Assembly: GCF_030028105.1 (NCBI RefSeq)
Contig: NC_092376.1
Coordinates: 30,056,935-30,120,934, forward strand
Length of the DNA stretch: 64,000 nucleotides
Origin: Mobula birostris
Lineage: Eukaryota
Reading direction: 5' to 3'
In this document: one piece after another, positions 3,221 to 61,221 of the stretch
How the letters are laid out: every line of letters starts with the position of its first letter
How positions within the stretch are numbered: position 1 is the first letter of the stretch
Notes under the pieces: generated by a model
Seen by the model: only the letters and a program-made list of their open reading frames with translations
Database searches by the model: none
What the model was told of the DNA's origin: nothing
Made by a program: the position numbers and the translations under genes

Positions 3221-3356
3221 CTGAGGAAGAAAAACACAGTATTATCAAAATCAGGATCCGTATTTAATTTTTTTTTCATTTGAGAAATCTGAGCATTGCT
3301 GACCAGGCCAACAGTGATTTTCCATCCAAAGTGCTTTTGAACTGAATGTGTTGCTT

Positions 3357-3497
3357 CACAAACATGACAAAATCTGCAGGTGCTGGAAATCCAAAGCAAC
3401 ACACACAAAATGCTGGAGGAATTCAGCAGGCTAGGCAGCATCTATGTAAAAGAATAAATAGTCAATGTTTCAGGCTGAGACCCTTCATCAGTTTGTG
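3357..3497 (-). mobile_element. PLE 3'-end derivative with hammerhead motif
   Basis: Minus strand ctgatgaagggtctcagcctgaaacattgac plus tail; flanked by the direct repeat tgtgttgctt (3347-3356, 3498-3507). Confidence 0.8.
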
Positions 3498-4164
3498 TGT
3501 GTTGCTTTGAAAGCATTGCTTGGCCATTTCAAAGAATAGTTAAGTGTTATATACTCTGGAGTTGAGGTCATCATGTGGCCAGACTGAATAAACACAAACT
3601 ACAGATTTCCCAAAAGGGCATTTTTGATCCAGGTAGACCCTTTTTTCAGCCCAGTCACCATTAGTGAGAGCTTTTAATTCAGCATTAATTTCATTCACTG
3701 AATATGAATTGACCTGTGGGGATCTGAATTCATAGCTCTGGATCAGAAGCTCACTTCTCTTCTAGAACTATTATATAAAGTAAAAGTTCTCCTATTCCCA
3801 AGGTAGAAGCTGGTCTCCTTTAAAGGTAGTGACAGATCGACAGTGTGGATTAACTAAAAATTCTCATGATCACCAGTTTTACAATAAAAGATGGCAGATG
3901 TCCTGAGCAAAGCCCTCATGCTCAGACAGTTCTCTCTGTCGCACTCAAGGCCATATTGACTTTCAACACCCACAGGATCTTTCCAAGTTGCAACAAGTCT
4001 CTGGCTGCATTCCCCAATTGACTGCTGTCAGCTGCATCAGGCCTAGGCACAGTGTTCCCAAAGAACTGACTTTATTTACTTTAAATTTCAGTGGGGAACT
4101 GGTGGTACCATGGGTCCTGGGATTTTCAGGGATTACTGGTTTGCCATGACTGCATCCATGCATC

Positions 4165-4433: not shown

Positions 4434-4472
4434 AAGAGACCCCACTAATAATCCAGATCTATATATGACAGG

Positions 4473-4600
4473 AAACAACAGGAATTCTGCAGATGCTGGA
4501 AATTCAAGCAACACACATCAAAGTTGCTGGTGAACGCAGCAGGCCAGGCAGCATCTGTAGGAAGAGGTACAGTCGACGTTTCAGGCCGAGACCCTTCGTC
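4473..4600 (-). mobile_element. Young PLE 3'-end fragment with intact tail, truncated within the hammerhead core
   Basis: Near-identical to the ends of the long PLE; gives the unsplit tail order ...ttcaccagcaactttgatgtgtgttgcttgaatttccagcatctgcagaattcctgttg. Confidence 0.85.
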
Positions 4601-5353: not shown

Positions 5354-5860
5354 GTCACCTTGCTCAAACAATGGAAACACAAGATTCTGGAGATTCTGGA
5401 AATCCAGAACAACACACACAAAATACTGGGGGGAACTCACCAGGTCACGTAGCATCAATGGTGAGGAATAAACAGCTGACATTTTAGGCCAAGCTTGGAC
5501 TTGAAAGGAAAGCGGGCAGAAGCCAGAATAAGAAAGTGAGGTAAGTACAAGCTGGCAGGTGATAGGTGAAACCAGGTGAGGGGCAAGGTAGGTGGGCAGG
5601 GGAGGAAGAGGAGATGAAGTGCCAAGCCGGGAGGTGGAAGAGTAAAGAGCTAAGGAAAAAGGAATCTGATAGGACAGGACAGTGGACCAAAGAAGGAAAG
5701 GAGGAGGGGCACCAGAGGAAGGTGATGGGAAAGTGAGGAAAAGAAAAGGGATAATAGGGGAGCTAGGATAGGGAATGGAAAAAGAGATGGGGAGAATGTT
5801 TGGAAGATATGTCAGAATGAGATTGGGAGGTAGAATTAAAATGGAAACATAGAAGCCTGC
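5354..5860 (-). mobile_element. Older PLE 3' fragment
   Basis: Decayed tail, purine-rich (plus strand) 3' UTR, and sequence similar to the endonuclease end at 27310-27350. Confidence 0.7.
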
Positions 5861-9459: not shown

Positions 9460-11125
9460 TATATAGGAAACAGAGCATTGTGTGTGTGTTGTGTGCTACT
9501 TAATATTACGCACAATTAGGGTTGGCAGATATCCATATTGACCAAACAGTCCATTTTAGAACAAGTTCTCCAATTGTTATTGTATGTTTTTCCTGGATCA
9601 TTTTCATTGGAGAAATATGTAAATTGGACAATGTTGAATTGTTTCTGGAGCTACAAATTAACTAGGATTTGAAATGAAGAATATTGCCATCAATATTAAA
9701 AGATCCTCTGGCTAATAATATTGCATCGAAAACTGAAACCTAATCATAAAGTTGGCAAACAACCAGGAGCTAACAAAACCTACGACAATGAAAGAGTCTG
9801 TGTTTAGTATAAATTCATTCACTGTACTAAAAAGAGAATTCAACACCCAGCTTTAATAATAGACATGGAGCTTAATAATAGAGTAAATAAGTTAAGTATC
9901 AGCTCATATCCAGTTCTAGTTACCATGATGTAAGAAGGTTGTCAAGGCCTTGAATAAAATGCAGAGCAGAATCAGAATCAGGTTTAATATTACTGACGTA
10001 TGCCTTGAAATTTGTTTTGCGGCAGCAATATTCAAAACTATAAATTACAGTTAAGAAATATATAAAAACTGAATTAAATAAGTAGTGCAAAAATAGAGCA
10101 GAAGTATCAGGAATAGCTGAAAAACTCCATTGTATGGAGAGACCATGATTATTCTAATTATTCTCAGTGAATGTTGAGCAGAACTGATGAAGCTGTTCAG
10201 AATTCAATAGGACTTTGAAATAGAATCTGTTTCCATTAGAATGAGGGTCAATAAGCAGAGTTAAGATGATTGGCAGAAATTCCGCTAGTGGAAGATTTAG
10301 AAATAAATATTTGTGCAGCAATTTGCTGTGCTCTGGAATGTACCTTGTGAAATGGTGGTGAAAGCAGATTAAATATTAATATTCTCTCAGTAGGAGGAAG
10401 GAGAATAGTTTGAGTGATATAGTTTTCCAACTGCCAATATAGACAGGATGCATGTCAGTACAAGATTAATATTGACATCACGCAACACACCATCAACATT
10501 ATTTTTGAAACAATTTTTCCTTCAACCATGCCTGTGACTTAAGAATGACAAGTAGTGTCTATACTATCCTTAGTCATGCTCTGAGATAGGTTTACTATGA
10601 TAACAAACATCTTTTTATTTATTATCAGTTACTATGTATATATAGATTACAAGATGGAAAACTGCAGTATGCAGAGGAAAGGTCCCAACAAACCAATTGC
10701 ATCATCCATTATGAATAAGGTTCAGGAAGGATCTGCTGCAATAATCTGCACAGACCTGCATGAATCAAGGTTCTACCAGTTGTTAGTTTCTACTGTGTTT
10801 GCTGTTTCAAATACCAGTTTTTATTGAGACTGAAAATTTCCACCAGAAGTACATCTCCTGCTAGTTCCAGATGATATGCACAGAGAGGCATCAGAATGAG
10901 ACTTTAATGAAGCCTAAGTTGTACATGGGCCTTCAAAGTGAAACATTACCAAATCCCACATAACCTTGTGCTACGGTCTACAAATTAAGGAAAATTTGCT
11001 ACAGATAGTATTTGTAGTAGAGAAAAAAAATCCTTGGGGAAATTGTTATTTATCAGTCTTATTTCTTGTTGAGCAAAGTTTCATTTGTAAAGTTCAGAAC
11101 AGGTTTTCAATGTTTAATGGATCTT

Positions 11126-11267
11126 CATAAACAAAATGCTGGAGGAACTCAGCAGGCCAGGCAGTATCTATGGAAAAGAGTACAGTCGACGTTTAGGGCC
11201 GAAATCCTTCAGCAGGACACAGGCGTGTGTTGCTCAGATTCCCAGCATCTGCAGATTTTCTCTTGTT
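11126..11267 (-). mobile_element. Mini PLE derivative with inverted tail and 13-bp TSD
   Basis: TSD tttaatggatctt at 11113-11125 and 11268-11280; decayed hammerhead on minus, tail piece on plus. Confidence 0.85.
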
Positions 11268-12595
11268 TTTAATGGATCTTATTTATTTTAAGGAAATTTA
11301 TAAAATACTTCTAACCCATCCTCATTTCTTAATTGATTGATGACACAACTACCCTCTCCCATCCCTCCCCTCCATCTTCCAGTAAGCTGGCCCCCGTACC
11401 CCCAGGATATCTCAGTCTCTCAGCTAAAAATCAACCTGGAACATACTACCCGAGTGGATGGTGGAGGCAGCCTACCCTCACAACAGGTAACAAGTATCAA
11501 TTCAATATTTGCATCACCAAGTTAGAAAAAGCTATGGCCCAAGCATGGGCAATTAGGATTGGTACAGATGGGATTCTTGATAGTTAACATAGATATGATG
11601 GTTTGAAGGGCCTGATTCCATGTTGTATGACTCTAACTTATATTTGTTCTATGGCCACTGTTGAGACTATGTCTATCAATTTGTGAAAACTAATGATGCA
11701 AAATTGTTTTATTAAATTTTAATAGACCATAAGATATAGCAGCAGAATTAGGCCATTTAGCCCATCGAGCATCCTCCACCATTTCCTCATGGTTGATCGA
11801 TTTCTCTCCCATTTTATTGTGCTAATTGAATGATAAATTTTGTTCCGTATTATCAGAAACAATTCATCAAAGAGTGTTTTGGAATCTCATATGTCCAATA
11901 AGAGAAGAGATGAGATTCAGGTTAAATATTTTATCTGACAGTCACCATCACCAACACTGCAGTAATCCCACAGTATTATCTGACAAGAGTGGGGCTTAAA
12001 TCAATTGTCTGACTCAAGAGACAATGGTAATGTATTGAAACACTCCATACTTTTTATGAAACCTATATATCCATTTTTCACGTCATTTTTGCCATAAGCC
12101 TGCTTTCTCAGGTACTTTTATCTCTGTGACGCTACCACATAACTCAACTAGAAGTTGTCTGAGGTTCTATAAATTCTAAACTTAGCAAAGCAATGCTGTG
12201 TTGATGTCAATTAAAAAAGTAAATCAGACATTGCTGCCAATTTACTTTTCCCCATACTTTGCTAAGTCTTAGCCCAATTTCTCTGTCAACTGTCTTCAAC
12301 AAAACCATTTCATATAAACTAAGGTCAGGGAACAGGAAGCTCAAAAGTTCAGGAATTTCTTAAATTCAGGAATTTATGCTAACTAGAAATGGCTCTATTA
12401 TTACCGAAGAAGGCTAGCAATTATTCCCATAAGCATTCAAATTCATAACTTTCTGCTTGAAGTCTACGTTTTATACTGCACAGTCTTTGGGATGACTTAC
12501 GTCTACTTGTCACATACGTGCCACTGAAACATTCTTGCAAATAGAATAGCATGCTTAATTAAAGAGTATAATTCCCTCCATGTGGCTGTACTCAC

Positions 12596-18483: not shown

Positions 18484-19538
18484 CAATCTGTGCGGATTAG
18501 TGATAGCATATCCTCTTCGCTGATGATCAACTCTGGCGCACCTCAGGGATGTGTGCTTAGGCCACTGCTCTACTCTCTATATACACATGACAGTGTGGCT
18601 AGGCATAGCCTAAATACCATCTATAAATTTGCTGACGATACAACCATTGTTGGTAGAATCTCAGGCGGTGATGAGGGGGCGTACACGAGTGAGATTTGCC
18701 AACTAGTGGAGTGGTGCCGCAGCAACGGCCTGGCACTCAATGTCAGTAAGACAAAAGAGCTGATTGTGGACTTCAGGAAGGGTAAGACAAAGGAACACAT
18801 ACCAATCCTCATAGAGGGATCAGAAGTGGAGAGAGTGAGCAGCTTCAGGTTCCTGGGTGCCAAGATCTCTGAGGACCTAACCTGGTCCCAACATATCAAT
18901 GTAGTTATAAAGAAGGCAAGACAGTGGCTATACTTTATTAGGAGTTTGAAGGGATTTGTCATGTTAACAAATACAGTCAAAAACTTCTATAGATGTACCG
19001 TGGAAAGCATTCTGACAGGCTGCACCACTGTCTGGTATAGGGGGTGGGGTGGGGGACTACTGCACAGGACTGAAAGAAGCTGCAGAGGGTTGTAAATTTA
19101 GTCAGCTCCATCTTGGGTACTAGCCTACAAAGTACCCAGGACATCTTTAGGGAGCAGTATTTCCGAAAGGCAGCATCCATTATTAAGGACCTCCAACACC
19201 CAGGGCATGCCCTTTTCTCACTGTTACCATCAGGTAGGTGGATAGAAGCCTGAAGGCACACACTCAGCGATTCAGGAACAGCTTCTTCCCCTCTGCCATC
19301 CGATTCCTAAATGGACATTGAATCTTTGGAAACCACCTCTCTTTTTTAAAAAATATACAGTATTACTGTTTTTGGACACATTTTAACCTATTCAATAAAC
19401 ATAATTGATTTACTTGTTTATTTATTTATTTATTTTTAAATTTTCTCTCTGCTAGATTATGTATTGCATTGAACTACTGCTGCTAAGTTAACAAATTTCA
19501 GGTCACATGCTGGTGATAGTAAACTTGACTCTGATTCT
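18484..19538 (+). mobile_element. Rex1/Babar-type LINE, same family, opposite orientation
   Basis: ORF 18490-19095: GAPQGCVLRPLLY, KFADD; frameshift in a G-run near 19040; gactct/gattct tail. Confidence 0.88.
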
Positions 19539-20887
19539 GTATTAAGTATCCAGTACCTTCCAGCTTTATAACATTGTGATGAGATAACATTAAAGGCAAT
19601 AAGTTCTCCAAATAATATACACAACCACTCATCAAAGATAAACAACAGAATACAATGGCAGCATATTAAAAGAAGGCTGAGTTGAATATTATAATATGGG
19701 AAATATTGAGAGACCATATTATATAAACCAGCCAGTTACAACAGTGTTGAGATGTTGAGGTTAATTACATACCCATTTTTTTGTTATGACAGCTGGACAA
19801 TTATTTGTCCTAATCTCATATAACTGTTTATTAGATATTCCGGTGCAGGTGACTGTAATTGTGACTAAATGATGGAAAATTCCAATATGCTTTTGCCACA
19901 GAAGAGGATTGAAATACAGCTAACTACATGGTAGACCATCAATAAACTACTGTATATAAATACTGGGTGAACACGTCAACAGCAAGGATATCACGCATAG
20001 TTTCCCCTCCCTACGACCCATATCTAACTTGAAATGGATTATCATTTTATGTTGTTCTTTGGAATTACTCCCTTTCACTTCATGTTCTTAAGCTTTCTCC
20101 TGCCTCAAGAACTTACCACGTTAAAAACTCTCTATTATCTGAATACTCTGCACAGTTTTCTAAGTTACTGAGAAGTAATCAATGGTCTGACAATGATTGA
20201 AATTGAGGATAACAAACTAAAAAGTTATCAGAAACGATCAGATTTGTCTGAACAAGCTGGGCCACTAATACAGGTGTCACAACAGTGACGGCTCTGAGTA
20301 AGCACTTCATAGAATATTTTCCATTCCAGGTTTCCAATAATATTTATTCAAGATTATATAATCTATAAAATAACATATATCAGGTGTACTTAAACTTTTC
20401 AGTGAAATACTGTACAATGGAAAGTAAACTGCATACAGTATTGCTTTATGCCCTGCTTCATGGGGTTGTTTTCTCCTTTGAGGCCCATATCAGAATTATA
20501 GAGCCATCGTGTCATACAACATGAAACAGACTTTTCAGCCAACCCTATACATCATTAATCCCGCTTAATACATAGCCTTCTAGTTTCATTTAAATACTTG
20601 TTAAGTATTGTAAGTTCACCTGCTTCTACCATCCACTAAAGCTGTGAGCACCAGGTTTCAACCAGCCTCTATGTAAAAAAACTTCTTGCATAAATCCTCT
20701 CTAAATCCCCCACTCCTGGACTTAAACCTACACTAAAAGGAAATGTTTCACATTACCTACTGTGTCTGTGCACCTCATAATTCTGAACATTTCAATCGGT
20801 TCAGCCTTCCCTTCTTCAAAGAAAACAAATCCAGCCTCCCTTCATTAATGAAACACTCCAGCCCAGACAGCTTTTCCATGAGTTCCT

Positions 20888-26350: not shown

Positions 26351-26842
26351 TTTGGAAAAGGACTCACTTTCAAGGAATCTCAATCTCATGTTCTCGATAG
26401 ATATTGCTTATTTGTTTATTATTGTTATTTCTCCTTTTTGTATTTGCACAGTTTGTTATCTCCTGCACTCTGACTGAATGCCCTAGTTGGGCAGTCCTTC
26501 ATTGATTCTGCTATGTTTATTATTCTATAGAGTTATTGTATGCCCACAAAAAATGAATCTCCGGGTTGTATATAGTGACATATATGCACTTTGATAATAA
26601 ATTTACCTTGAACATTTACTTTAGAAAGAAAATGTATCTATAGGGCAATACTAACTGACTACCATTCTGGCAGTAGCTGCAATACACTTGTATTTTTGTT
26701 CTAATTTCAACCAGACTTAAAGTTAAAAAGGATCTAGTGTTTCCCTGGCGTATATGATGCATAAATTCTTCCTGGGATTCCAGCCAGGTACAGGTATCAA
26801 TTTTAACCGACGTTTCAATAACAAACTCCAGCATCTTCATCA

Positions 26843-29800
26843 AAGTTGCTGGTGAAGAGGTGCAGTCGACGTTTCAAGCCGAGACCCTTCGTCAGGACTA
26901 ACTGAAGGAAGAGTGAGTAAGGGATTTGAAAGTTGGAGGGGAAGGGGGAGATCCAAAATGATAGGAGAAGACAGGAGGGGGCGGGATGGAGCCAAGAGCT
27001 GGACATGTGATTGGCAAAAGGGATATGAGAGGATCATGGGACAGGAGGTCCGGGAAGAAAGACAATGGGGGGGGACCCAGAGGACGGGCAAGAGGTATAT
27101 TCAGAGGGACAGAGGGAGAAAAAGGAGAGTGAGAGAAAGAATGTGTGCATAAAAATGAGTAACAGATGGGGTACGAGGGGGAGGTGGGGCCTTAGCGGAA
27201 GTTAGAGAAGTCGATGTTCATGCCATCAGGTTGGAGGCTACCCAGACGGAATATAAGGTGTTGTTCCTCCAACCTGAGTGTGGCTTCATCTTTACAGTAG
27301 AGGAGGCCGTGGATAGACATATCAGAATGGGAATGGGCTACGGAATTAAAATGTGTGGCCACTGGGAGATCCTGCTTTCTCTGGCGGACAGAGCGTAGAT
27401 GTTCAGCAAAGCGGTCTCCCAGTCTGCGTCGGGTCTCACCGATATATAAAAGGCCACATCGGGAGCACCGGACGCAGTATATCACCCCAGTCGACTCACA
27501 GTTGAAGTGTTGCCTCACCTGGAAGGACTGTTTGGGGCCCTGAATGGTGGTAAGGGAGGAAGTGTAAGGGCATGTGTAGCACTTGTTCCGCTTACACGGA
27601 TAAGTGCCAGGAGGGAGATCAGTGGGGAGGGATGGGGGGGACGAATGGACAAGGGAGTTGTGTAGGGAGCGATCCCTGCGGAATGCAGAGGGGGGGGGAG
27701 GGAAAGATGTGCTTAGTGGTGGGATCCCGTTGGAGGTGGCGGAAGTTACGGAGAATAACATGTTGGACCCGGAGGCTGGTGGGGTGGTAGGTGAGGACCA
27801 GGGGAACCCTATTCCTAGTGGGATGGCGGGAGGATGGAGTGAGAGCAGATGTACGTGAAATGGGGGAGATGCGTTTAAGAGCAGAGTTGATAGTGGAGGA
27901 AGGGAAGCCCCTTTCTTTAAAAAAGGAAGACATCTCCCTCGTTCTAGAATGAAAAGCCTCATCCTGAGAGCAGATGCGGCGGAGACGGAGGAATTGCGAG
28001 AAGGGGATGGTGTTTTTGCAAGAGACAGGGTGAGAAGAGGAATAGTCCAGATAGCTGTGAGAGTCAGTAGGCTTATAGTAGACATCAGTGGATAAGCTGT
28101 CTCCAGAAATAGAGACAGAAAGATCTAGAAAGGGGAGGGAGGTGTCGGAAATGGACCAGGTAAACTTGAGGGCAGGGTGAAAGTTGGAGGCAAAGTTAAT
28201 AAAGTCAACGAGTTCTGCATGCGTGCAGGAAGCAGCGCCAATGCCGCCGTCGATGTAGCGAAGGAAAAGTGGGGGACAGATACCAGAGTAGGCACGGAAC
28301 ATAGATTGTTCCACAAACCCAACAAAAAGGCAGGCATAGCTAGGGCCCATACGGGTGCCCATAGCTACACCTTTAGTTTGGAGGAAGTGGGAGGAGCCAA
28401 AGGAGAAATTATTAAGAGTAAGGACTAATTCCGCTAGACGGAGCAGAGTGGTGGTAGAGGGAACTGATTAGGTCTGGAATCCAAAAAGAAGCGTAGAGCT
28501 TTGAGACCTTCCTGATGGGGGATGGAAGTATATAGGGATTGGACATCCATGGTGAAAATAAAGCGGTGGGGGCCAGGGAACTTAAAATCATCGAAAAGTT
28601 TAAGAGCGTGAGAAGTGTCACGAACATAGGTCGGAAGGGATTGAACAAGGGGTGATAGAACTGTGTCGAGGTATGCAGAAACGAGTTCGGTGGGGCAGGT
28701 GCAAGCTGAGACAATAGGTCGGCCAGGACAGGCAGGTTTGTGGATCTTGGGTAGGAGGTAGAAACGGGAAGTGCGGGGTGTGGGAACTATAAGGTTGGTA
28801 GCAGTGGATGGGAGATCCCCTGAGCGGATAAAGTCAGTGATGGTGTGGGAGACAATGGCCTGGTGCTCCTTAGTGGGGTCACGATCGAGGGGTAAATAAG
28901 AGGAGGTATCCGCGAGTTGTCGCTGTGCCTCGGCAAGGTAGAGGTCAGTACGCCAGACTACAACAGCACCCCCCTTATCGGCGGGTTTAATAATAAGGTT
29001 AGGATTAGTGCGGAGGGAGTGGAGAGCAGAGCATTCCGAAGGAGTGAGGTTGGAATGGGGACAAGGTGCGGTGAAGTCGAGACAGTTGATGTCCTGTCGG
29101 CAGTTAGCGATAAAGAGATCCAGAGCAGGCAGAAGACCAGAGCGGGGTGTCCATGAAGAAGAGGAGGGTTGAAGACGGGAGAAGGGGTCATCGGTGGGGG
29201 TGGAAGAGTCCTTGCCGAAGAAGTAGGCTTGGAGACGGAGACGGCGGAAGAAGAGTTCCGCATCATGGTGAACACGGAACTCGCTGAGGTGTGGGCGAAG
29301 GGGGACAAACGTGAGGCCCTTACTGAGAACAGAGCATTCTGCCTCCGACAGTTGAAGGTCGGAGGGGATGGTAAAGACCCGGCACGGATGAGAGCTGGGA
29401 TCAGAGGGGGGAGGGGGGAGGCTGGGGGTGTCAATGGAGAGGGGAGGGTTGGGGTGAGAGGAAGATGGAGCCTCTGAGGGCCCAGGAGTTGACGGTGGGA
29501 TCTGAGGAAGACGGGGCTGCGGAGTGGTGGTGGGAGAAGGGGAGACGGGAGTCACAACAGCAGCACTTGAAGACCCGGCCTGGAGTTCAAGGCTGGCGTC
29601 GCAGTTGGAAGTTGCGCAATCGCTGTGAAGGTGTTCATGGTCGTTGCTGGGGTCCGGGTTTTGAATGTGCCCTGAGGTGTTGGAGCCGGCGAGATCAATG
29701 GCAGGAGCCACAATCTGAAGTTCATGCCTGCTAGCGTCGGGGCCGGCAGGCTCTGGAGTCTGTAGATGTAGGATCTTGCGATCTTTGCCTAACATGACAA

Positions 29801-30003
29801 AGTCAAAAAAACGGCGATTGCAGGCGTGAATCCGACGGAGGACGAAATAACGGGTAGGACCATTACAGACGGCGAAGAAAGTGTCCCGAAGGTGTGGAAG
29901 GGTCTGGGATAGGGACACCAAGTACCTCCTCATGGCGGAGAGAGTCGCCTTTGATGTTTGATGTGTGTTGCTTGAACTTCCAGCATCTGCAGAATTCTTG
30001 TTG
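26843..30003 (-). mobile_element. Penelope-like retroelement (Neptune-like), 5'-truncated and frameshifted
   Basis: RT motifs KPADKGG, LPKIHK, GRPIVS, MDVQSLY, MGTRMGPSYA, YIDG; Cys linker CKRNKCYTC; GIY-YIG VIYCVRCSRCGLLYIGET...R..EH; stop at 27192; 16-bp TSD tccagcatcttcatca at 26827-26842 and 30004-30019. Confidence 0.95.
26864..26899 (-). ncRNA. Minimal type I hammerhead ribozyme in the PLE 3' pseudo-LTR
   Basis: AGUC-CUGACGA-AGG(gucucgg)CUU-GAAA-CG-UC^GACU: stem I AGUC/GACU, intact core, palindromic ACGU stem III. Confidence 0.85.
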
Positions 30004-30599
30004 TCCAGCATCTTCATCAGGGATAATGCCTAGGCACTTCTAGCCCAGTGGTACATATTGTATCGTCAACTCCCATCGTCCGTCCCTCCTGACTGGTCAG
30101 TCCTCAACCAATCAGGTTTCCGCTGTCCCACCTTGTTTAAAATAATATTCCAATTCTTAGTTAGACTGAGACCTTCATATATATTGAGTATATACCACCA
30201 GGCTAGACGTGTCTAAGCATAATTTCTAATGAAGATGGCAGAGTTTGTCATCGAAATGTCAGTTAAATTCAACACCTGTACCTGGCTGAATGCCCCAGAA
30301 GAGTTTATGAGGCTGAAAGTTATACAACAATAAGAACAGAATAAAAAAGGTGGTAGTAGAAAATGGGTAGGCTACTCAGTCCTTCCCCTGCTACTCAATA
30401 TGATCATGACTGATCTAACTTCAGCCTCATCACCTCTTCTGTGGCCACATAGCCCTGAATCCTTTGGATTTTCTTCCAAAAATGAAACTTGTTCCTCTTT
30501 AAATACCTCCAATAATCTAACCTCCATAAGCCTTCAGGATAAATACCATGCCACCAGTTCAGCTTTATCAAAAGTCCAACATAAACTTAGAGGTGTACA

Positions 30600-30930: not shown

Positions 30931-31778
30931 AAGCAAAGCAGCCCACTCACAGAAGAACATTACACAGTACAGTACTTATGAATTATGAATTATTACAGAG
31001 TGCAGAGATTGGGCATGTAAATTGGCAGGCATTATCTGTATATCAATACTTGCCACCACTCAGGACATTGTCAACTTGAATTAGAATGACTTCAGTCAGG
31101 AGATTTGGACTGGTAAATCTAAACAAGCTATACTTGTACTAGGGCCACATGCAAGTGGTAATCTTGTCCAGCTCACCACTAACAGAGACCTAGTATTCTG
31201 CAAGTCCAATCGTCCATCCAAACTGGTTTAACCTTTTAGGCCAATACAAAAATGCAATGTTCCACAGTAGTAACTACACTTTGATTAACAAATTAAAACC
31301 TGTCCATTTGCTCCATGTATCCCAAATTTAAGCTCAATAGCAGTTCCGTACAAATGGATTTCACTATAAACTGGCAAGTAAATTTGTGGCAAATTTTTGT
31401 TAAATTACACAAATGCTGCCTGTATTCAAGGTTATACATATTGCTTTATGGACTAGAAAGCTGATTTAAGGCATATTATCATACCTTTAGCCAATCAGTC
31501 TTATTAGTACACAGCACTTGAATGCTTGCTGCCAATGAAGTCAATACTTCATTTAGTTATGTATACTTTTTCTGGCTCTATTCATTATTAACTCGTAACC
31601 CACACGAAATAAGGTCACCATGGATCAATAAGGACACCATGGGACAATGTGAAAGAGGTCACTCTATTGTGTTCACTGTTATACTAACTTCTGACAGTGA
31701 ATTGTAATGAATGCAGTGGTTCTCAGCCAGTGAATGTGCCGCACTGAAGTGTGATATCATTCAGGTTTGTAATACATC

Positions 31779-33160
31779 TTGTTCAAAAAAGGTAGTAGGG
31801 ATAGTCCGGGTAATTATAGACCAGTGAGCCTTACGTCTGTGGTGGGAAAGCTGTTGGAAAAGATTCTTAGAGATAGGATCTCTGGGCATTTAGAGAATCA
31901 TGGTCTGATCAGGGACAGTCAGCATGGCTTTGTGAAGGGCAGATCGTGTTTAACAAGCCTGATAGAGTTCTTTGAGGAGGTGACCAGGCATATAGATGAG
32001 GGTAGTGCGGTGGATATGATCTATATGGATTTTAGTAAGGCATTTGACAAGGTTCCACACGGTAGGCTTATTCAGAAAGTCAGAAGTTGTGGAATCCAGG
32101 GAAGTTTGGCCAGGTGGATTCAGAATTGGCTTGCCTGCAGAAGGCAGAGGGTCATGGTGGAGGGAGTACATTCAGATTGGAGGATTGTGACTAGTGGTGT
32201 CCCACAAGGATCTGTTCTGGGACCTCTACTTTTCGTGATTTTTATTAATGACCTGGATGTGGGGGTAGAAGGCTGGGATGACACAAAGGTTGGCGGTGTT
32301 GTAGATAGTGTAGAGGATTGTCAAAGATTGCAGAGAGACATTGATAGGATGCAGAAGTGGGCTGAGAAGTGGCAGATGGAGTTTAATCCGGAGAAGTCTG
32401 AGGTGATACACTTTGGAAGGACAAACTCCAAGGCAGAGTATAAAGTAAATGGCAGGATACTTGGTAGTGTGGAGGAGCCAAAGGATCTGGGGGTACATGT
32501 CCACAGATCCCTGAAAGTTGCCTCACAGGTGGATAGGGTAGCTAAGAAAGCTTACGGGGTGTTAGCTTTCATAAGTCGAGGGACAGAGTTTAAGAGTCGC
32601 GATGTAATGATGCAGCTCTATAAAACTCTGGTTAGGCCACACTTGGAGTACTGTGTCCAGTTCTGGTCGCCTCACTATAGGAAGGATGTGGAAGCATTGG
32701 AAAGGGTACAGGGGAGAATTACCAGGATGCTGCCTGGTTTATGATCAGAGATTAAGGGAGCTAGAGCTTTAATCTTTGGAGAGAAGGAGGATGAGAGGAG
32801 ACATGATAGAGGTGTACAAGATAATAAGAGGAATAGATAGAGTGGATAACCAGCGCCTCTTCTCCAGGGCACCACTGCTCAATACAAGGGGACGTGGCCT
32901 TAAGGTAAGGGGTGGGAAGTTCAAGGGGGATATTAGAGGAAGGTTTTTTACTCAGAGAGTGGTTGGTGCGTGGAATACACTGCCTGAGTCAGTGGTGGAG
33001 GCAGATAAACTAGTGAAGTTTAAGAGACTACTAGACAGGCATATGGAGGAATTTAAGGTGGGGGCTTATATGGGAGGCAGGGTTTGAGGGTCGGCACAAC
33101 ATTGTGGGCCGAAGGGCCTGTACTGTGCTGTACTATTCTATGTTCTATGTTCGATGTTCT
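31779..33160 (+). mobile_element. CR1 LINE, 5'-truncated RT plus 3' end
   Basis: PGNYRPVSLTSVVGK, QHGF, DFSKAFDKVPH, GVPQGSVLGP, deletion before DDTK, RPHLEYCVQFWSP; (ttctatg)n tail. Confidence 0.95.
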
Positions 33161-34340: not shown

Positions 34341-35162
34341 GTACGGCACTGTAACTAACAGAAAGCAGGTAATGAAACCATTCCAGTGCAACCACAAAGG
34401 TAACCAAAAGAAATGAGGGATAGGGAGCTAGAGAAGGAAACTGAGGGATCAGGAGTCATATGAATCTCTTTATTTCTCAGTACATTCCAAATACCATCCT
34501 TCAAAATCCCTCCACAATCAAATGGTCATGTTTCCTTGGATCTAGCAAGCTGCATTTGGTTTTGATGAATTTAATAATCCAAGACTGATTTACTTTTACA
34601 GGCTCTCTCACAAGTGGTAAGTGTTGTCAGATAAGAACAAAGAGAACAACATAGAGGGAAGACTGAACAAACATGTGAAGAGGAAAGGGAGAGAACATTG
34701 ACTGGATTGGATAAGTAGGTATGGTTGGCTATGTAAAAAGCACAAAGCAGCTGGACTCTCTTTGCTGTAAATGTTATGAGAAGGAACCAGGGAAGTAGGA
34801 AGCATTCTGATTTTAATGAGAAGAATATATGGTTATGGGTCAGATGAAGTAAAAAAAAATTCTAGCTTGACTTCAGTAAGAATCAAATCCTCCAGATTTA
34901 AGATTGAGGTAAATATTCAAAGGTAAGTAAATAAGCAGCCAGATGCAGCCTGGGTAGAAGTAGCTTTTAAGGAGGCCACATGCCTCCATGATAATGCATT
35001 TTTAGATTTATATTTGACATCAACTGGGCTTCCTGAAACTTTGGAATCTTTGGAATGTGTAAGGAGAGGAACAGAACTGGATCCATAAGCTGGGTGTACT
35101 TACAGAGCCGTTTCTGAACTAGAAGGCACAGGAGTCTACCCAACAGATCCTGTCAAACGCTT

Positions 35163-35476
35163 TCTTTCTCCCTAGGCCTCCCATCCCATGATCCTCTCCC
35201 TTCTCCAGCCTCATATCCCTTTTGCCAATCAATTTTCCAGCTCTTAGCTCCGTTCCTCCCCCTCCTGTCTTCTCCTATCATTTCAGATCTCCCCCTCCCC
35301 CTCCCACTTTCAAATCTCTTACTAGCTCTTCTTTCAGTTAGTCCTGACGAAGGGTCTCGGCCTGAAACATCGACTGTACCTCTTCCTATAGATGCTGCCC
35401 GGCCTGCTGCGTTCACCAGCATTTTTTGTGTGTGTTGCTTGAAATTCCAGCATCTGCAGATTTCCTCATGTTTGCG
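35163..35476 (+). mobile_element. PLE 3'-end copy with hammerhead (35340-35375) and 13-bp TSD
   Basis: TSD ctgtcaaacgctt at 35150-35162 and 35477-35489; agtcctgacgaagggtctcggcctgaaacatcgact; unsplit tail. Confidence 0.9.
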
Positions 35477-36385
35477 CTGTCAAACGCTTCACCTGAAATC
35501 TGGTCCGATCCCACCTTACCCCACCTTGTCGCCCATGCCTCACTGCCTGAGTCTCTCCTCACCCACTCTTGTAAAATCTCCTCTCATGTTCTCAGCTAAA
35601 GCTTTCTCCTCCTCTATTGTGTCCATCTGTTTCAAATATTCCCAAACTACAAATGCCAAACAATCAACCAGGCTGTCTGTAAACAGGAAAAAAACATAAA
35701 AGGTTTTCAACTGTAGAGGATATTAATGAAATATGAGATGCACATCCATTATTCCTCCTCCTCTCCAAAATTATCCAGTCCTACGAAATTATGTATGCAA
35801 TAAATATGGGGAAGAGGTGCATAGTGTAGTGGTTTCTGAGAAATATACCGCCTTCAAAAAGATGCCACAGCGCTAAGAGAGAAACAGAAGTTATGCTGTA
35901 ATTTATTGCTTTCCCAAATAGTTAACATAATGAAATGACATTCCCACTTGCAGTGGGGCTCCAATGAGGAAATAAAGATGAAATAGTCCATTATTCCAGT
36001 ATGAGAATGCACAATAATATCTAATACATTTCACACTTATAGAAAATGAGAATTAGATTAGAAATTATGCAAAACATTTGACAAACGAGCATGAAATTGC
36101 TCTCTCTGCTATCTTAGCACAGACATCATCACATTTACGAACGGAGTGAAATAGCTGAGAGAGAGAGAGAGAGAGAAATTTCATACGACTGAATGGAGCC
36201 TTCACTCAATGAGTGAAATCTCACATTATTACAAAGTTAAAGAAAATGTTGAAAGAATGAGCATATTGGGTATTAAATCACAAACTCGTTTATTTTCACT
36301 GCAGCTATTAATATAGGGTATAGATCTTATTGTTAATATAGATCATTGTGGGCTAAAAGGCCTGTTTCTCTGCTTGATTGTTCTA

Positions 36386-39300
36386 TCAGAATCAGAATCA
36401 GGTTTAATATCACCAGTCTATGTCGTGAAATTTGTTGTCTTTGTGGCAGCAGTACAATGTAATACATAATAATAGAAAAAAATGTGAATTATTGTTATGT
36501 AGTATATATTTTTAAATAGTTAAATTAAATACATAGTGCAAAAGTTGAAATAAAGTATGATGTAGGTAGTGTTCATGGGTTCAATGTTCATTCAGAAATC
36601 GGATGGCAGAGGGGAAGAAATTGTTCCTGAATCGCTGAGAGTGTGCCTTCAGGCTTCTGTACCTCCTTCCTGATGGTAGCAGTGAGAACAAGGCATGACC
36701 TGGGTGATGGGGGTCCTTAATGAGGAATGCTGCCTTTTTGAGGCACCTGTCACATCCACGGATTCAGCAGCGCAGTAGAAACAGCAATTGCGCTTGTGAA
36801 TATGCACATGTCAGCTAATCATTATTTTATCATGCTAGTACTTAACTCCACACTTGGAGTTGTAGTGCTTGTCGAGACTTGGACACAGCACAACACTTTG
36901 CTGCCTGTTTGCATTCAGCCTTGCCTGAGAAACTGGACTGTCGAATCAACTAACTCTGAAGTCTAGCGGTATTCGTTTAATGTTTAGTTGTTCTTTTCAG
37001 CCACAGTGTAGGCTCCATCTTTCCATGAGAGTTTTAGTTAGCAGCCCTGTTTGGCCCAGAGTTTATTATCTTCTTTCCCCTTTAACACTGTAAATATTAA
37101 AGTCTGTAAACTATCGACCCACTTCAGTGTCTCTCACTCCGCACTTGGGCCATATCTGAACATGCTGACAGCAAGTCTCGATCGACACAAAGATGGACCC
37201 AGCAGAGAGAGAGCAGCTGACCTTGGCTGTCAGATTCACTGGTCAGGTAGGAGACAATCTACAGGCAATGGAATCTGTTCTCAGTGAAGTTACAGAGGCA
37301 ATGACACAGATAATCTCATACCAACAAGCCCAGTCTCACTTGGAGCAACAGGTATCGTCCCTAGCCGCGACTGTTCATCAGCTCACCGCAGACAATCGGA
37401 CTCAAGTGTCCGGACCACAGCTGAGTCCCTCATTCGGAACGGAGTATTCCACCTCCAGGCAGATATTCTGGTGATGCCAGTGGATGCATAATTTTATTAT
37501 CCAATGTGAGCTAACATTCCAAGCCCAGCCTGGTCGTTTTGGTGATGATGTGCGAAAGCTGGTGTACATGGTCAATCTTCTTGATGGACCTCCATCAGCC
37601 TGTTCAATGCTTTACGGGAGCAAGGATACCCCGCAGCCCAGTTGTTCTGACATTTCGTGATGGAGTTAAGGAGGGTTTTTGTTCTTCCAGTACGGGGTCA
37701 GGAGGCTGCCCACCAACTCTTGGAGCTGCACCAAGGCAGAGGAACGGTGAGAGCCTATGCAGTTAGATTCCGTACCACTGCAGTAGAGATGGGTTGGAAT
37801 GAGAAATCTCTCATCACTGCCTTCCAGCGTGGACTGAACACAGGGGTCCTGCATGAGATCGCTGTCCAGGACGAGGAGGATTGTCTGGATGACCTGATTA
37901 ATCTGGCTATCCAAGTTGACGACTAGGTGACTGAGTGGCGCAGGGAAAGAAAGTTTCAATCTTCCTACGCCACCTGATCTCCATCTTTCCTCACCTTCTC
38001 TCCCTCCCGCACCACCCAGCACCCAGACCATGGACACAGAGAAGCCTATGTAAGTGGGGCGCATGCGCCTGTCTCAGAAGGAAAAAGAGCAGCGTTGGAG
38101 GACAGGTTCCTGCCTCTACTGTGGTGATCCAGGCCACTTCGGGGCGGCACGTTCCAGGCGTCCAGTAAAAGAGAATACCCAACAGCAGGGAGGGGAATCC
38201 TGATGGGTCGGTTCTCTCTTCAGTCAGCTTCCCCTGATTCTGTAATGCTCATAGCTTCCTTGTCACGGAGGTCTCAGACCCATGAACTTAAGGTGTTTAT
38301 TGACTCTGGTGCAGTTGGGAATCTTATGGACATCTCTCTCACTCAAAGATGGGGAGTTCCAACTCAGGAATTAAGAGAAAAGATCAATATCAAGGTGCTG
38401 GACGGTCAACTTCTGGAAACCGGCCAGATTCACCTTTCCACCCAACCCCTCCAACTGGTGCTTGAAGGCGACCACCATGAAGAAATATCTTTCTGTCTGT
38501 TTAATCCACCTGAACTGCCTCTGGTACTTGGTCTACCCTGGTTATTCCGACATAACCCATGGATCAATTGGTCTCTGAAGGTACTCCAAGAGTGGGGACC
38601 GGCATGCTCGTCTACCTGTCTGGGTCCAGCTCAAGCTCCATCCCATGAATCCCCCTCCTGTGTCAGTTAAGGATGTGGACCTGTCTGGGATTCCAGCTGA
38701 ATATACGGATCTCCTTGACGTTTTCAGTAAAAGGAACTGTGGCCATGAAGGAAGACATCAAGGAGGCATTAAGCATGGGGTTTATCCGTCCGTCAACCTC
38801 ACTGGCAGGAGCAGGCTTCTTTTTTGTGAGCAAGAAAGATGGCAAGCTCCATCCTTGCATCGATTATCCGCCCCTGGACAACACACTGTGAAGAGCCGCT
38901 ACCCTCTTCTCTTGCTGGCGTCTCTGTTTGAACATCTCCAGGGAGCAACCATATTTTCCAAAATTGATCTGCTCAATGCTTACAATCTGATTCGCATAAG
39001 AAAAGGGGATGAGTGGCCATTATGACTGGTGATGCCTTTTGGTCTGGCCAAGGCCCTCGCTGTATTCCAGGCCTTGGTTAACGAGGTACTCAGGGACACA
39101 TTGAACCAGTTTGTGTTTGCGTATTTAGGTGACATCCTTATCTATTTTTGGGCTTACTTACTTATCCCATCCGGTGTTCAAATGGACCCTAGTAAAGTTC
39201 AGGCAGCTGTAGAGTAGCCCAAACCGTCTACAGTCAAACAGGTGTGGCGTTTCATGGGGATGGCGAACTTTTATCGCCGCTTCATCTGGAATTTCGGCTC

Positions 39301-46209: not shown

Positions 46210-46530
46210 TCGGGTCTCGCCAATATATAGAAGGCCACATCGGGAGCACCGGACGCAGTATATCCCCCGTCCCCCTCTTCTTTCTCCCTAGGCCTCCTGT
46301 CCCATGATCCTCTCATATCCCTTTTGCCAATCACCTGTCCAGCTCTTGGCTCCATCCCTCCCCCTCCTGTCTTCTCCTATCATTTTGGATCTCCCCCTCC
46401 CACTTTCAAATCTCTTACTAGCTCTTCCTTCAGTTAGTCCTGACGAAGGGTCTCGGCCTGAAACGTCAACTGTACCTCTTCCTAGAGATGCTGCCTGGCC
46501 TGCTGCATTCACCAGCAACTCTGATGTGTG
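46210..46530 (+). mobile_element. PLE fragment with internal inversion and hammerhead (46436-46471)
   Basis: 46210-46264 matches 27430-27483 (GIY-YIG coding, minus sense); 46265-46530 is the 3' end in plus sense. Confidence 0.85.
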
Positions 46531-48811
46531 ATGTTGGGAAATGTCAAATTGGCAGAAAAAAAAATGATTCAAATCATATTACCCTAAGGGTGAGATATTT
46601 CAGAGCTCTGAAATGGAAAGAGATCAGACTGCCCTTAGTGTTAAGGCAACAAAACTACTTGCACAACTGGAATATATAGATTGGTTTTATATCATGCATG
46701 TACTGTAGAAGCACATCATGTGTGCACTTTGGATATTCTGTGAAAAACCCTGTAATAAATTGCACATACTTCGTTTGAGCTCCTTATGTCTCATATGTAT
46801 TGGTCCAAACGCCTCACAAAAGCCATTGATAAAGTTAACTCTTCATAGAATTGTCCATAGGCTATACTGAAGACAAGGACAGGACAGTGCCCAGCAAAAG
46901 CAAAGCAGAGTCGTTCAAGACACTATGACGACATGGCTATACTGGTAGCATGAACCTGAAAAGTTCATGATTAATCACAACAAGTAGCAGGTACAGATTT
47001 GAAAATGACAAGAAGTAGCTCCTGCAAACGCTAAGATAAGCCTAGCACCTGTTGAAGTAGAAACAGTACAGATAACAGGATTTTTTTTAAGCACAAATAC
47101 TGGAAATAGGAAACAAAAAGAGGAAGTACTGTGCAGGTCAGGCAGCACATGTGGAAGGAGAAGCAGAGTTAATGAATTTGTCAACCTGAAACTCTGGCCA
47201 TGTTCTTTCTTCCCTCAGATGCTGCTTGACCTGCTGACTACCTTCAGCATTTTCTGTTTTAATACCATAATCGATAAACTATCCGAGATCGGATACATAA
47301 GAAATCTTGGAAGTTACATCCAAACACAAGAAGCAATCCAATGTACATCTATGGAAATATTTGCAGCGGAAGTAACATTGTCCAAACTGAGGGTATGGGA
47401 AAAAAGATTGGAATAAGGCCACGTGCATGAAGACAGTCTATTCATTGTACTTAAACAATCTTGGTAAGTATACCTGTGGCCCACTAAATTATCATTGTCT
47501 GATTTAAGGAAGTCATAGAAGACTAAAACCATTTCAACTCAGTGCTGGTAACAGCAGAGAGTTACAAGTTTGAGATACAGTATCAGAAGTCGAGAGGGAA
47601 AATTAGAGATCATACAATTGTTTTGAAGAATTTGCTGAGGTGGAGCAATAACACTGATTTTCAATCATGCTCAGTGAGTTACATTTGTGTGTGGACTAAC
47701 TGATGACCATGTTTTGTCTAAGTTACTAAATACAGTTCATTAACTTATAAATGGGTATACTAATTTCACCAATGGAAGTGATTTCTGAAAATTGGAAATG
47801 ATTTTAACAGGAACTGAAAATGAATGACAATTTGAAATACGGACCAATGGCAGAAGCAATAGTAGAAGTTTCATCGTTAAGTTCTTCTCAGAATGCAGGT
47901 TTGCAAAATATAAAGACAACATGAGTGAATGGTAAATTTTGCAGAGATAAAATGTGATTTCAAAGTGATAAACATTGATAGTCAAGACATTTATATAAAT
48001 ATTGATATTGTTGCTGACTGCACCATTATGGTATGGGTAAGTGTAACCAGATGTTTGGGAAGATGCTATTAGTGAGAAGCATATTAAAGTTGAGAACATG
48101 TCCTGGCAAGAATCTTAGAAAAATTAGGACAAATGGGAAATTATCTTCCATAATGCGAAAAAGGCAAGGCTGCTGATTATAGTGGTTGATTATCTGAATA
48201 GACCAAACTGGCTGGGAGGAGAAATGGGCTGAGAGCAATGTGGTTGAATTGGAAAAGTTTATTTAATATGAATATCATGAAGAAGCTTCTGGAACATTAT
48301 GATGGTATGTTGAAGGATTCATACGTGGGCACGAAAGGGCTCCCAGATCATATTGGCACGAAACCAAATGCCTAACTGAGCTCTCTACACCCTGAACACT
48401 CAGATCAAAGTAAAGTCAAACTGGAGCAACATAGCATTTTGGTAAAAGTGTACCAGAATGATAGGGATAGACCTTTCATAATGGTATGTAAGCTAGTGAC
48501 CCAAGTTCAATTCTAACCTTATGTGCAGTGTACAGGATTTGCACATTCACCCTTTGACAATCTGGGTTTGTTTCTCGTGGCTGCTCTGATTTCTTCCCAA
48601 GTGTAAGGAAGTGCTGATAGATTTACTGGCTATTATAAATGCCCCCTTGTGTAGATCAGTGGCAGGTAATCCAGGAGAAGGGAAGAGACAATAGGTTACA
48701 GGGAAATAAGTAAGTGCTTAGAGGCAGCATCAACGCAATGGATCAAATAGCCTTATATGCGGGAAGAAAATCTATGAACAAAATGTATAACTATACCAGT
48801 GGAGCAACAAC

Positions 48812-49018
48812 CAACAAGAGAAGGTCTGCAGATGCTGGAAATCTAAGCAACGCACACACAAAATGCTGGAGGAACTCAGGAGGCCAGGCACCATTGACAG
48901 AGAAGAGTATAGTCAATGTTTTGGGCCAAGAACCTTCATCAAGACTTTTTTTTCCTCCAGTCCTGATGAAGGGTCTCGGCCTGGAATATCAACTGTACTC
49001 TTTTCAATAGATGTTGCC
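48812..49018. mobile_element. Inverted pair of PLE 3' ends with two decayed hammerheads
   Basis: Minus-sense tail plus hammerhead to ~48946, then plus-sense agtcctgatgaagggtctcggcctggaatatcaact. Confidence 0.75.
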
Positions 49019-49144
49019 GGGGAGATGGGAACCAGAGCACCGGAATAGGTAGTGGAGTGGTTGCAGAGAACGATATTGTTAAGCCTACATACAAGGTCAG
49101 GAATTAAAAAGTTGAGCGTGGCTGGACAAATGTTCTGAGCTGCA

Positions 49145-59309: not shown

Positions 59310-59875
59310 CTGCATAAAAGGGTGCAATATCATTAGAATGGTTAAAAATTGCACACAAAGATGCAACTAAATCAGGTGTGTATAAAGTACTTGATAATAA
59401 TGATTGATAAATGGATTTTAAAATGATCAAAATGATATGAACTCCCGTTTGTTAATACGTGGCTGAGCATGTCATACAAACCTCCTCAGGAATAAAACCA
59501 GTTCAGTTATTTGAACAGATACCTGCAAAAATGCACATCTTAATTGAAGACACCTGCTGGAGTGCACAACCATACCTTGAAACAGAATTGTTCAGTTAGG
59601 GAGCACAATAAAAGCCATAATGAGTAGTCAATTGAAAAATAAGTTCAAAGTAAATTCTGCAAGTTGAAAGTAAATCCTATAAGTTCAATGTAAATTATCA
59701 AAGTACATACAGTATACAGTATGTCGCTATACACTACCTTGATACTCTTTTTCTAGTGGGCATTCAAAGTAGAACAAAGTAGTACAAAAGAACCAGTGAC
59801 AAACTGCACACTCTTCTCTCACTGCTGCCATCAGGAAGAAGGTACAGGAGCTACCAGGTTCAGGAACAGTTAGTA

Positions 59876-60132
59876 AACACAAAATAATCTGCAGATGCTG
59901 GGATCAAAGCAACACTTACAGTACGCTGGAGGAACTCAGCAGGTCCGGCAGCATCAGTGGAAACGATGAGTCGACATTTCGGGCCGGAACCCTTCGCCAG
60001 GACTGAAGAATGAAGGAGGGGGAAGGATTTGAAGAATGCTTGTCGGTTCGGTTGAAAGACCAGTAATTTGAAAAGACAAAGGGGTGGGGGAGGGGAACCA
60101 TCGACGTCATAGGACGTTAGTAGATGAAGGAA
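59876..60132 (-). mobile_element. PLE 3'-end copy (subfamily variant) nested in a Rex-type fragment, 15-bp TSD
   Basis: TSD caggaacagttagta at 59861-59875 and 60133-60147; hammerhead-like gtcctggcgaagggttccggcccgaaatgtcgac. Confidence 0.85.
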
Positions 60133-61221
60133 CAGGAACAGTTAGTACCCTTCAACCACCAGGCTTCTGAACCAGAGGGGATAATTTCACTTGCCCCCAT
60201 CATTGAAATGTTCCCACAACCTATAGACTCCCCTCACAGGACTCATCCTCGTTCTTTATGTATTTGCACAGTTTGCTGTTCTTTGCACTCTGACTGAATG
60301 CCCAGGTTGCCGCAGTCTTTCATTAATTCTGTTATGTTTACTATTCTATTACGGGTTTACCGGGTATGTTCGCAAGAAATTGGATCTCAGAGTTGTATTT
60401 GGTGACATGTATGTACTTTGATAATAAATTTACTTTGAACTTTGAACAAAGGCTGATGTGCAAAACAAGACAAACTGTACAAATACAAATAAATAAATGA
60501 TAGATAGATTGGTAGATAAGTAATACAGATCACATGACTTACAGAGTCCTTGAAATTGAGTCCATAGGTTGTGGAGTCAGTTTTGCATTGAGGTGAGTAA
60601 AGTTATTCACAGTGGTTCAGGGGTAGAGGGATGAGGGGTAGTAACTTCCCCTGAACCTGCTAATGTGGGATCTGCTTCCCGATGGCAGCAGTGAAAAGAG
60701 AGCACAGCCTGGGTGGTGGGAGTCCCTGGTGATTAATGATGCTTTCTTGTGGCAGATGTCCTCAATGAAGAATACTGCTAGATCACTAACCTGCACGACA
60801 GAAGGTATTTTCAGTGCACCTTTAACATGTGAAATGTGTATTCATCCAAGCATTAGAAAAGTTTGCACACAGCACATTCAGAGGTAAGTGCTGAGGAAGC
60901 CTTTTCAGGACTGGGACAAGGCAGAGGAGAGTAAAAAGGACGCCTTGATTGACCGAAGGCCCTGTTTTCATTTGTTGCATTCATTAATAGTGTATGGATA
61001 GCCACATAAAACCTGTTTTTATCAAGTGATGATTTCCATGAAGCAGCACAGAAAGGTAGATTAACAAGTTTCCAGTCAATAGGACAATTACTCTCTCCTG
61101 TCACTGCTGAATATTAGGGGGCGTTAATATATTTACAAACATTCTATTCATATGATAATATTGATACTGCTTTTCAGCAGCAGTTAGGATTGCAGGAGAT
61201 CATTCGTATTTTCTCTGCTGC

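Follow-up and report, generated by a model that had tools for sequence, protein, structure and literature searches.

Canonical EN+ Penelope-like elements (PLEs) carry inverted pseudo-LTRs (pLTRs) and an optional 'tail' of 30-40 bp (PMC8557442, PMC3846280). The tail has already been described on either end of an insertion, and the formation of both the inverted repeats and the tail has been ascribed to unknown properties of the endonuclease (PMC8557442). Minimal hammerhead motifs have been reported in the pLTRs of Neptune elements (PMC4209133). For PAc, a Poseidon element of the anole Anolis carolinensis, the purified protein nicks and extends both target strands, and RT begins at two neighbouring sites within the RNA, one on each side of the tail; that study left unvalidated whatever follows first-strand synthesis, and the accessible part of the paper reports no product that uses both start sites at once (PMC11167929). 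In L1 twin priming, one target end primes at the end of the RNA and the second within that same molecule, and microhomologies accompany the process (PMC2912911). We found no description in the literature of a flipped arm consisting of the tail alone, or of twin priming by a PLE; Arkhipova 2006, Evgen'ev and Arkhipova 2005, the D. virilis endonuclease paper and Fig. S2 of PMC11167929 may bear on this point, and in PMC3649969 'twin priming' and 'Penelope' occur together only in the reference list.

Here we analyse a 64-kb stretch of DNA from Mobula birostris (the window), in which a 3.2-kb PLE copy, referred to as the long copy, lacks its tail at the 3' end and carries it inverted at the 5' end, inside its own target-site duplication (TSD). 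The long copy is a canonical EN+ PLE of the Neptune/Nematis type. Its open reading frame, on the minus strand at 26843-29949, is frameshifted into three pieces in three frames, with a stop at 27192. The RT part carries the motif YIDG, and a search at E <= 0.001 gave 416 relatives, among which a bamboo shark sequence is best (71%) and many come from marine invertebrates (40-58%); Pfam gave no RT match on the RT pieces of the window, and these pieces match RVT_1-bearing relatives at 55-71%. Two relatives were found for the N-terminal part, both from stingray, as would fit batoid DNA. A stingray relative is about 90 residues longer at its N-terminus, so the long copy is truncated inside the ORF. 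The C-terminal piece matched GIY-YIG at 23.6 bits (cut-off 22.6) and contains CCHH-type cysteines, and the translation includes a DKG motif and the arrangement VIY-CxxCxxC-LYIG with downstream His residues. A zinc finger of the RT-EN linker, CX4CxxC, lies at the start of the EN frame, is common to the relative P0005 and falls within the CX2-5CxxC pattern that defines Neptune/Nematis elements. A PDB sequence search with P0005 returned no matches.

A descriptor for the minimal type I hammerhead matched the long copy at 26864..26899 on the minus strand. The same descriptor found two copies in the window (26864-26899 and 35340-35375) and none in 30 resampled windows, and Rfam gave no match on the window at the gathering score; a minimal hammerhead is predicted, from this descriptor match, in the pLTR region of the family. 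The first-pass annotation had proposed a hammerhead-bearing Penelope-like family, and the RT, the GIY-YIG domain and the descriptor match bear this out. Poly(A) is absent and the nuclease is a GIY-YIG, so the element lacks the features that define LINE-1, namely a poly(A)-primed 3' end and an APE; it would work like L1 twin priming, but it is no L1. The window holds no full-length copy of the family.

Positions in the 3' region are given below on the A-scale, which takes the unsplit copy A (4473-4600, minus strand = sense) as reference and uses its coordinates in the window; a lower number is nearer to the 3' end. The 5'-truncated body of the long copy, with RT, linker zinc finger and GIY-YIG, occupies 26843..29949 on the minus strand, and its inverted 47-nt tail occupies 29957..30003 on the plus strand (A-scale 4522->4476), identical to copy A at 45 of 47 positions. 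Between the two lies an extra 7-nt copy of the tail's first letters (29950..29956, plus strand), forming a 7-nt tandem duplication at the inversion junction (29950-29963); a 3-nt microhomology at 29949-29951 is putative. The whole is enclosed by an exact 16-bp TSD at 26827-26842 and 30004-30019, as previously proposed. The last 5 nt of its left copy are microhomologous to the inner tail zone, and the first 10 nt of its right copy equal a tail-internal stretch (29979-29988). The body's own letters stop at A-scale 4521, or at 4516 if five TSD letters are counted; these five letters past the end of the body, which fit the element too, had earlier been counted as element and belong to the TSD, while the split itself stands. 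Body and tail overlap by 2-7 nt, in addition to the 7-nt duplication. The long copy also has a 29-nt deletion immediately 3' of the hammerhead (26853/26854).

The long copy is inserted into a second element, from a different hammerhead-bearing family, whose hammerhead core it interrupts; this target, the 29-nt deletion and the 7-nt duplication had escaped the first-pass annotation. The left arm of this host element, which carries the tail, lies at 26735..26842 on the minus strand, and its inverted right arm at 30229..30309 on the plus strand is 79% identical over 81 nt and stops about 25 nt before the point reached by the left arm; the host is a classical inverted pLTR with the tail on one side. 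Removal of the long copy gives an empty site with an intact hammerhead core of the host element, and because excision restores this core, the 16-bp repeat is a true TSD.

Nine well-preserved loci of the family were found in the window (A, B, C, D, E, F, G, H and the long copy), of which two are split, six have an intact tail and one is tail-less. The second split copy is copy C (11113..11280, minus strand; element 11126-11267, 142 nt), with a body at about 11131-11220 (minus), an inverted tail at 11225-11267 (plus) and an exact 13-bp TSD (11113-11125 / 11268-11280), so that its partition within a 13-bp TSD, already reported by the first-pass annotation, is confirmed. Five odd letters come after its body, which stops at about A-scale 4517, and 4516 is the first position of the inverted piece; body and tail overlap by 0-5 nt, and about four letters at the junction are unexplained. 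In both split copies, the last 43-47 nt are missing from the 3' end and stand in reverse orientation at the 5' end. By a chance estimate, an exact repeat of at least 10 bp arises at two random junctions in 2 of 3000 cases. The tails of the long copy and copy C are alike at 34 of 40 positions and their bodies at 35 of 43, which places them in different subfamilies, and their junction letters and TSDs differ. Because they belong to different subfamilies and have their own TSDs, they are independent insertions, and descent from a single rearranged master, which had been named as a possible refutation, is not what was found.

The remaining copies show other arrangements. Copies A (4473..4600, minus strand; no TSD found) and B (35150..35489, plus strand; element 35163-35476, with a 13-bp TSD and the minimal hammerhead at 35340-35375) are unsplit, as previously described, and so are copy F (59861..60147, minus strand; 15-bp TSD at 59861-59875 / 60133-60147) and copy G, of an older subfamily (5373..5493, minus strand). 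In copy E (48810..49021), an unsplit arm (48810-48946, minus) is paired head to head with an inverted arm that is shorter (48959-49021, plus) and ends at A-scale 4544. Copy D (3347..3507, minus strand; element 3357-3497) had been read as carrying an added inverted piece, but it keeps its whole tail; the inverted-looking 20-nt stretch 3492-3511 includes the 10-nt TSD, and no more than 6 nt of it belong to the insertion. The TSD of copy D (10 bp, 3347-3356 / 3498-3507) matches the inner zone of the tail, and the 6 nt (3492-3497) are an inverted extension. Copy H (46210..46530, plus strand) does stop near the break, at A-scale 4512, 4-9 nt from the break of the long copy, but it does not share the split architecture: it is a tail-less body with a 59-nt inverted piece (46210-46268) from the endonuclease region (93% to 27429-27487), and no TSD longer than 6 bp was found in its flanks. 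Of the four copies cited, two are split. The inner boundaries of three inverted pieces in the window lie at A-scale 4516-4523, and the earlier suggestion that non-distal 3' ends cluster near the tail boundary holds: when older pieces are included, five of eight such ends fall within 4512-4528, with a nominal p of 0.002 for an interval chosen post hoc and with two of the five ends coming from old, degenerate copies.

In order to see these ends beyond the window, contigs of four of 23 public runs were aligned to A-scale 4430-4640 (61,013, 89,384, 7,932 and 3,508 contigs); X2 and X5 are the two large DNA runs, and treating X9 as RNA is a guess. Among the loose ends listed, those whose flanks are long, A/T-rich and in poor agreement are most numerous distally, at 4473 (683, 855, 121 and 38) and at 4480 (163 and 202), together 846 in X2 and 1057 in X5, and form a second peak at 4506/4507 (149, 189 and 31), making up at least 15% of the three listed peak rows in both large runs. 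Letters shared beyond 4473 put the family end at about 4470, and the second end is therefore about 36 nt inside it. Subfamily variation could be behind part of the 4506/4507 signal, yet the consensus there has no tail motif. The distance of about 36 nt from the family end to the second peak agrees with an optional tail of 30-40 bp; the split pieces are longer, at 43-47 nt. Loose ends 'behind 4517' (171, 182, 38 and 34) were considered as flipped tails and rejected, being the continuation of the other subfamily with a median of 15-22 nt. Pattern scans for further copies gave no loci in viral contigs, metagenome contigs or prokaryote genomes.

Contig joints in which the alignment goes back (4597-4480, 4595-4508 and 4603-4512) are head-to-tail units, with unit ends at 4480, 4508 and 4512. 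The inner boundaries of the 12 head-to-head joints listed are at 4516, 4517 (two), 4527, 4533, 4534, 4554, 4565 (three) and 4570 (two), so that three of 12 are at 4516-4517 (p 0.05 vs uniform). Six of the 12 come from a table that does not give the kind of joint, head-to-head being read from the junction letters; of the 12 rows listed in that table the six starting at 4600 were used and the other six left out, and of four opposite-strand rows listed, 4494-4537 (X9 only) and an X9 contig at 4554-4591 were left out. Opposite-strand joints at 4517-4601 occur in two X2 contigs, with junction letters unlike those of copy C. Tail-only inverted arms recur at other loci, as a minority, and the contigs are silent on whether the bodies there lack the tail.

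Compared with the systems described above, the family resembles EN+ PLEs in its RT with a C-terminal GIY-YIG, its pLTR hammerhead, its variable TSD, its inverted 5'-truncated arm and its one-sided tail, and also in having a second 3' end, which lies about 36 nt inward of the first. As described for EN+ PLEs, however, the tail is carried by an inverted pLTR of about 180-220 bp, whereas the inverted arm found here consists of nothing but the tail and supplies the end that the body lacks. PAc is similar in its two start sites around the tail and in the cutting and extension of both target strands, but it belongs to the Poseidon clade and starts at sites non-homologous to the cut DNA, while here there are two inner-primed cases with homology between target and RNA. 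L1 is similar in that one end is at the usual start and the other internal, the TSD is kept and inverted and non-inverted segments occur together; microhomology where the second end would anneal is seen for the long copy and copy D, is weak for copy H and was not found for copy C. Here, unlike L1, there is no poly(A) priming, a GIY-YIG replaces the APE, and the breakpoint falls in a preferred zone only about 45 nt from the start, so that it is the shorter segment that seems inverted. Non-LTR retrozymes, which are non-autonomous PLE derivatives, likewise exist as short hammerhead-bearing pLTR copies, but in tandem arrays (bioRxiv 10.64898/2026.07.22.740005), whereas the short copies in the window (A, C, D and E, 128-142 nt) lie scattered, either singly or head to head; neither 'tail' nor 'shark' occurs as a word in the accessible text of that preprint. 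The parts that we did not find described are the complementary flip of the tail alone and the homology between target and tail.

On balance, the long copy and copy C were probably, if by no means certainly, made by a reaction like L1 twin priming, in which both nicked target ends prime on the same RNA. Staggered nicks would fall 10-16 bp apart, the distance shown by the TSDs. One target end would prime at the distal start site, and priming from the other would begin about 36-51 nt further in, within a zone rich in G and U; both zones are evident from the ends described above, and priming at them is proposed by analogy with the anole element. The near-exact partition suggests that the distal cDNA may halt at or near the inner primer, leaving the tail only, and that the inner cDNA would give the body. 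The two cDNA ends would then be joined head to head, the junctions themselves showing small duplications or extra letters, and homology between target and tail likely aids capture of the second end. The same two zones would also yield the commoner outcomes, which are an intact tail, a tail-less copy or a variable inverted arm with a one-sided tail. The data are compatible with twin priming or internal initiation, both of which the first-pass annotation had put forward.

This reading is supported by the near-exact partition between body and tail, which was found in both split copies: in each, a TSD surrounds inverted and non-inverted segments that partition the RNA. Further support comes from the separate TSDs and subfamilies of the two copies, the restored hammerhead core of the host, the clustering of non-distal ends in the window, and the two loose-end peaks and the opposite-strand joints in the contigs. 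The target of the long copy matches the RNA from the break onward over the 5 terminal nt, with an anchored score of 15 that 3 of 600 random flanks reached with a free anchor. Among 10 TSD-side primer ends, two have at least 10 nt complementary to the 3' region of the family (the long copy with 10 nt and copy D with 12 nt), a length reached by 103 of 122,432 random ends (0.08%), in a comparison made post hoc and with the two ends of copy F misplaced by 1 and 6 nt. For copy H the target extension score is 9, which 77 of 600 random flanks reached, and for copy C, with an extension score of 2, no microhomology was found at the inner junction, where matches are 3-4 nt only.

Several observations count against twin priming on one RNA. 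Only two split copies are available, copy C lacks the microhomology, the contig mode lies 6-15 nt from the breaks in the window, and the anole element used as a model belongs to another clade, Poseidon. In copy D the long cDNA extends across the region to which the second end annealed, something hard to obtain from one RNA, and the tail-priming end of the long copy had a perfect 10-nt match to the tail, yet its cDNA starts at least 13 nt further out. Nine of the 12 listed contig joints begin away from 4516-4517. A G/U-rich hairpin at the break, seen in folds of copies A and D, was no better than shuffles (z -1.45 to +0.53), and a special fold at the break was accordingly rejected. With less than even confidence, we extend the proposal to the whole group: PLE RNPs may routinely load both nicked ends on one RNA, one at the distal start and one in the G/U-rich zone 36-51 nt inside it, with homology between target and tail picking the second priming. 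A single double-primed reaction would then account for the optional tail, for ends that lack it, for inverted pLTRs and for the flipped tail, which would be its genomic fingerprint.

The alternative that best survives, although we consider it rather unlikely, is that two primers used two templates or passes, the product being an ordinary inverted pLTR whose tail-bearing arm stopped after about 45 nt. Perhaps the arm paused at the G/U-rich hairpin, in which case no block on the same RNA is needed. Inverted 5'-truncated copies with a one-sided tail are the published norm, inverted arms of many lengths are seen (the host element, copy E, the pair at 47094-47260 and the joints at 4527-4570), and the anole protein is a predicted dimer (PMC11167929). 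Two templates also account for copy D, which overlaps its own tail, as well as for copy E and the host element. However, the arm has to stop within about 7 nt of the end of the body in two of two cases, for which we estimate rough odds of 0.12-0.15 each if arm lengths are spread over about 100 nt.

We regard as improbable, and largely refuted, the view first put forward for this locus, that the tail is routinely split off at one fixed site, lying internally about 45 nt from the end of the RNA, and is then copied from the other strand. The three inverted pieces of the window at 4516-4523 and three listed contigs at 4516-4517 agree with it. Against this, ends are spread over 4506-4521 (4512-4521 in the window, with the contig mode at 4506/4507) and arm boundaries over 4516-4570, with nine of the 12 listed arms starting elsewhere; six of nine well-preserved loci keep the tail, and copy H is tail-less without a flipped tail. 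Relative to the median of the body, summed contig depth at 4506 is 0.68 in one of the two large DNA runs and 0.57 in the other; this lower depth of the tail is a weak hint only, as contig depth cannot rank parts or show RNA ends. Because the split copies break 6-15 nt further in than the contig mode and arm starts vary, the ends point to a preferred zone and not to one fixed site. The phrase 'from the RNA end' is probably wrong as well, given that RT begins internally at both boundaries of the anole element's tail. The depth ratio at the tail boundary is 1.27 in X2 and 1.29 in X5, vs 1.06 in X9 and 1.12 in X17, which show no step, and X9 has relatively more depth 3' of the hammerhead site; neither observation is counted as evidence.

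It is equally improbable that the split arose after insertion, through inversion of the body in place, or that all split copies derive from one rearranged master. Formally, an ordinary truncated copy results if the body of either split copy is inverted in place, and the long copy is otherwise damaged (the 29-nt deletion and the frameshifts), but a break exactly at the edge of the TSD would be required twice, and different subfamilies, junction letters and TSDs speak against a master. An assembly artefact or chance is hardly credible: the contig comparison was confined to copy A, but the TSDs are exact (null 2/3000), the hammerhead core of the host is restored and the same type of joint occurs in independent contigs.

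The feature is real but narrower than had been claimed: it is confined to two split copies and a preferred zone, and it stands close to the tail already known from PLEs, with its pair of internal start sites. Flipping of the tail is one of several results seen here, a less common form of the known Penelope tail, and a new class of element is not indicated. A tail-only arm that complements the body is what is expected if both target ends prime on one RNA. The very high copy number of the family, with 61,013 and 89,384 contigs in two DNA runs, makes a genome-wide test cheap, and the existing in vitro system of the anole element offers a direct one. For annotation, arms of 45 nt and TSDs that resemble the tail blur the boundaries of these elements. 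Older pieces of the family were found by profile search at 620-708, 47126-47257, 15789-15819 and 51389-51465, and an old pair is present at 47094-47260.

Several short copies of the family share a common 5' start at the hammerhead's 5' edge: the unsplit copy A (4600), the split copy C (11220), copy D (3491) and both arms of the head-to-head copy E (48946 and 48959). On the coordinates of copy A (minus strand sense, lower numbers nearer the 3' end), loose ends of public sequencing-run contigs behind 4597 coincide with this start. The shared start suggests either a non-autonomous master of ~135–140 nt or a reverse transcriptase that stops at this point. A TSD was looked for in copy A and not found, and its 5' end (4601–4606) resembles a 7-nt local inversion of the first hammerhead letters.

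The boundaries of the inverted arms form a second cluster at 4565–4574 on the same scale (5/12 among the contig joints listed), which coincides with stem I and with the site where the hammerhead is predicted to cleave. This cluster could reflect either cDNA extended up to the 5' terminus left by self-cleavage of the RNA, or template switching via stem I. At 47094–47260, two old arms from a related subfamily stand head to head, and only one of them carries the tail.

Two TSDs each include a perfect 10-nt match to the sense strand of the tail, those of the long, 5'-truncated copy (26827–26836, identical to 29979–29988) and of copy D (3347–3356), in both cases at the end expected for a bottom-strand primer. 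Such tail-like TSDs may reflect capture aided by homology, or a targeting of sites that resemble the element itself.

The long copy interrupts a second hammerhead element of unrelated appearance (26735–26842 and 30020–30309), having landed in that element's hammerhead core. Of the two inverted arms of this host, only one has the ~25-nt tail by which they differ, the classical inverted pLTR arrangement. A dispersed repeat (79%) lies immediately left of this host element (26434–26616) and immediately right of short copy F (60254–60443). The frame of the long copy (28434–30029, minus strand) has 26 further open codons upstream of the true ORF, read through the inverted tail and the TSD. This extension is probably fortuitous and could misguide gene callers.

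Several decayed non-LTR RT copies belong to one family (16480–19539, 36387–37173 and 40545–41168), which includes an inverted pair (16480–17537 and 18483–19537, 86%). Further RT fragments (31773–32852 and 61770–62623) are CR1-like, judging by their motifs. The stretch 38128–40616 appears, judging domains by eye, to be the decayed pol region of a Gypsy-like LTR retrotransposon, with protease, RT, RNase H, integrase and chromodomain.
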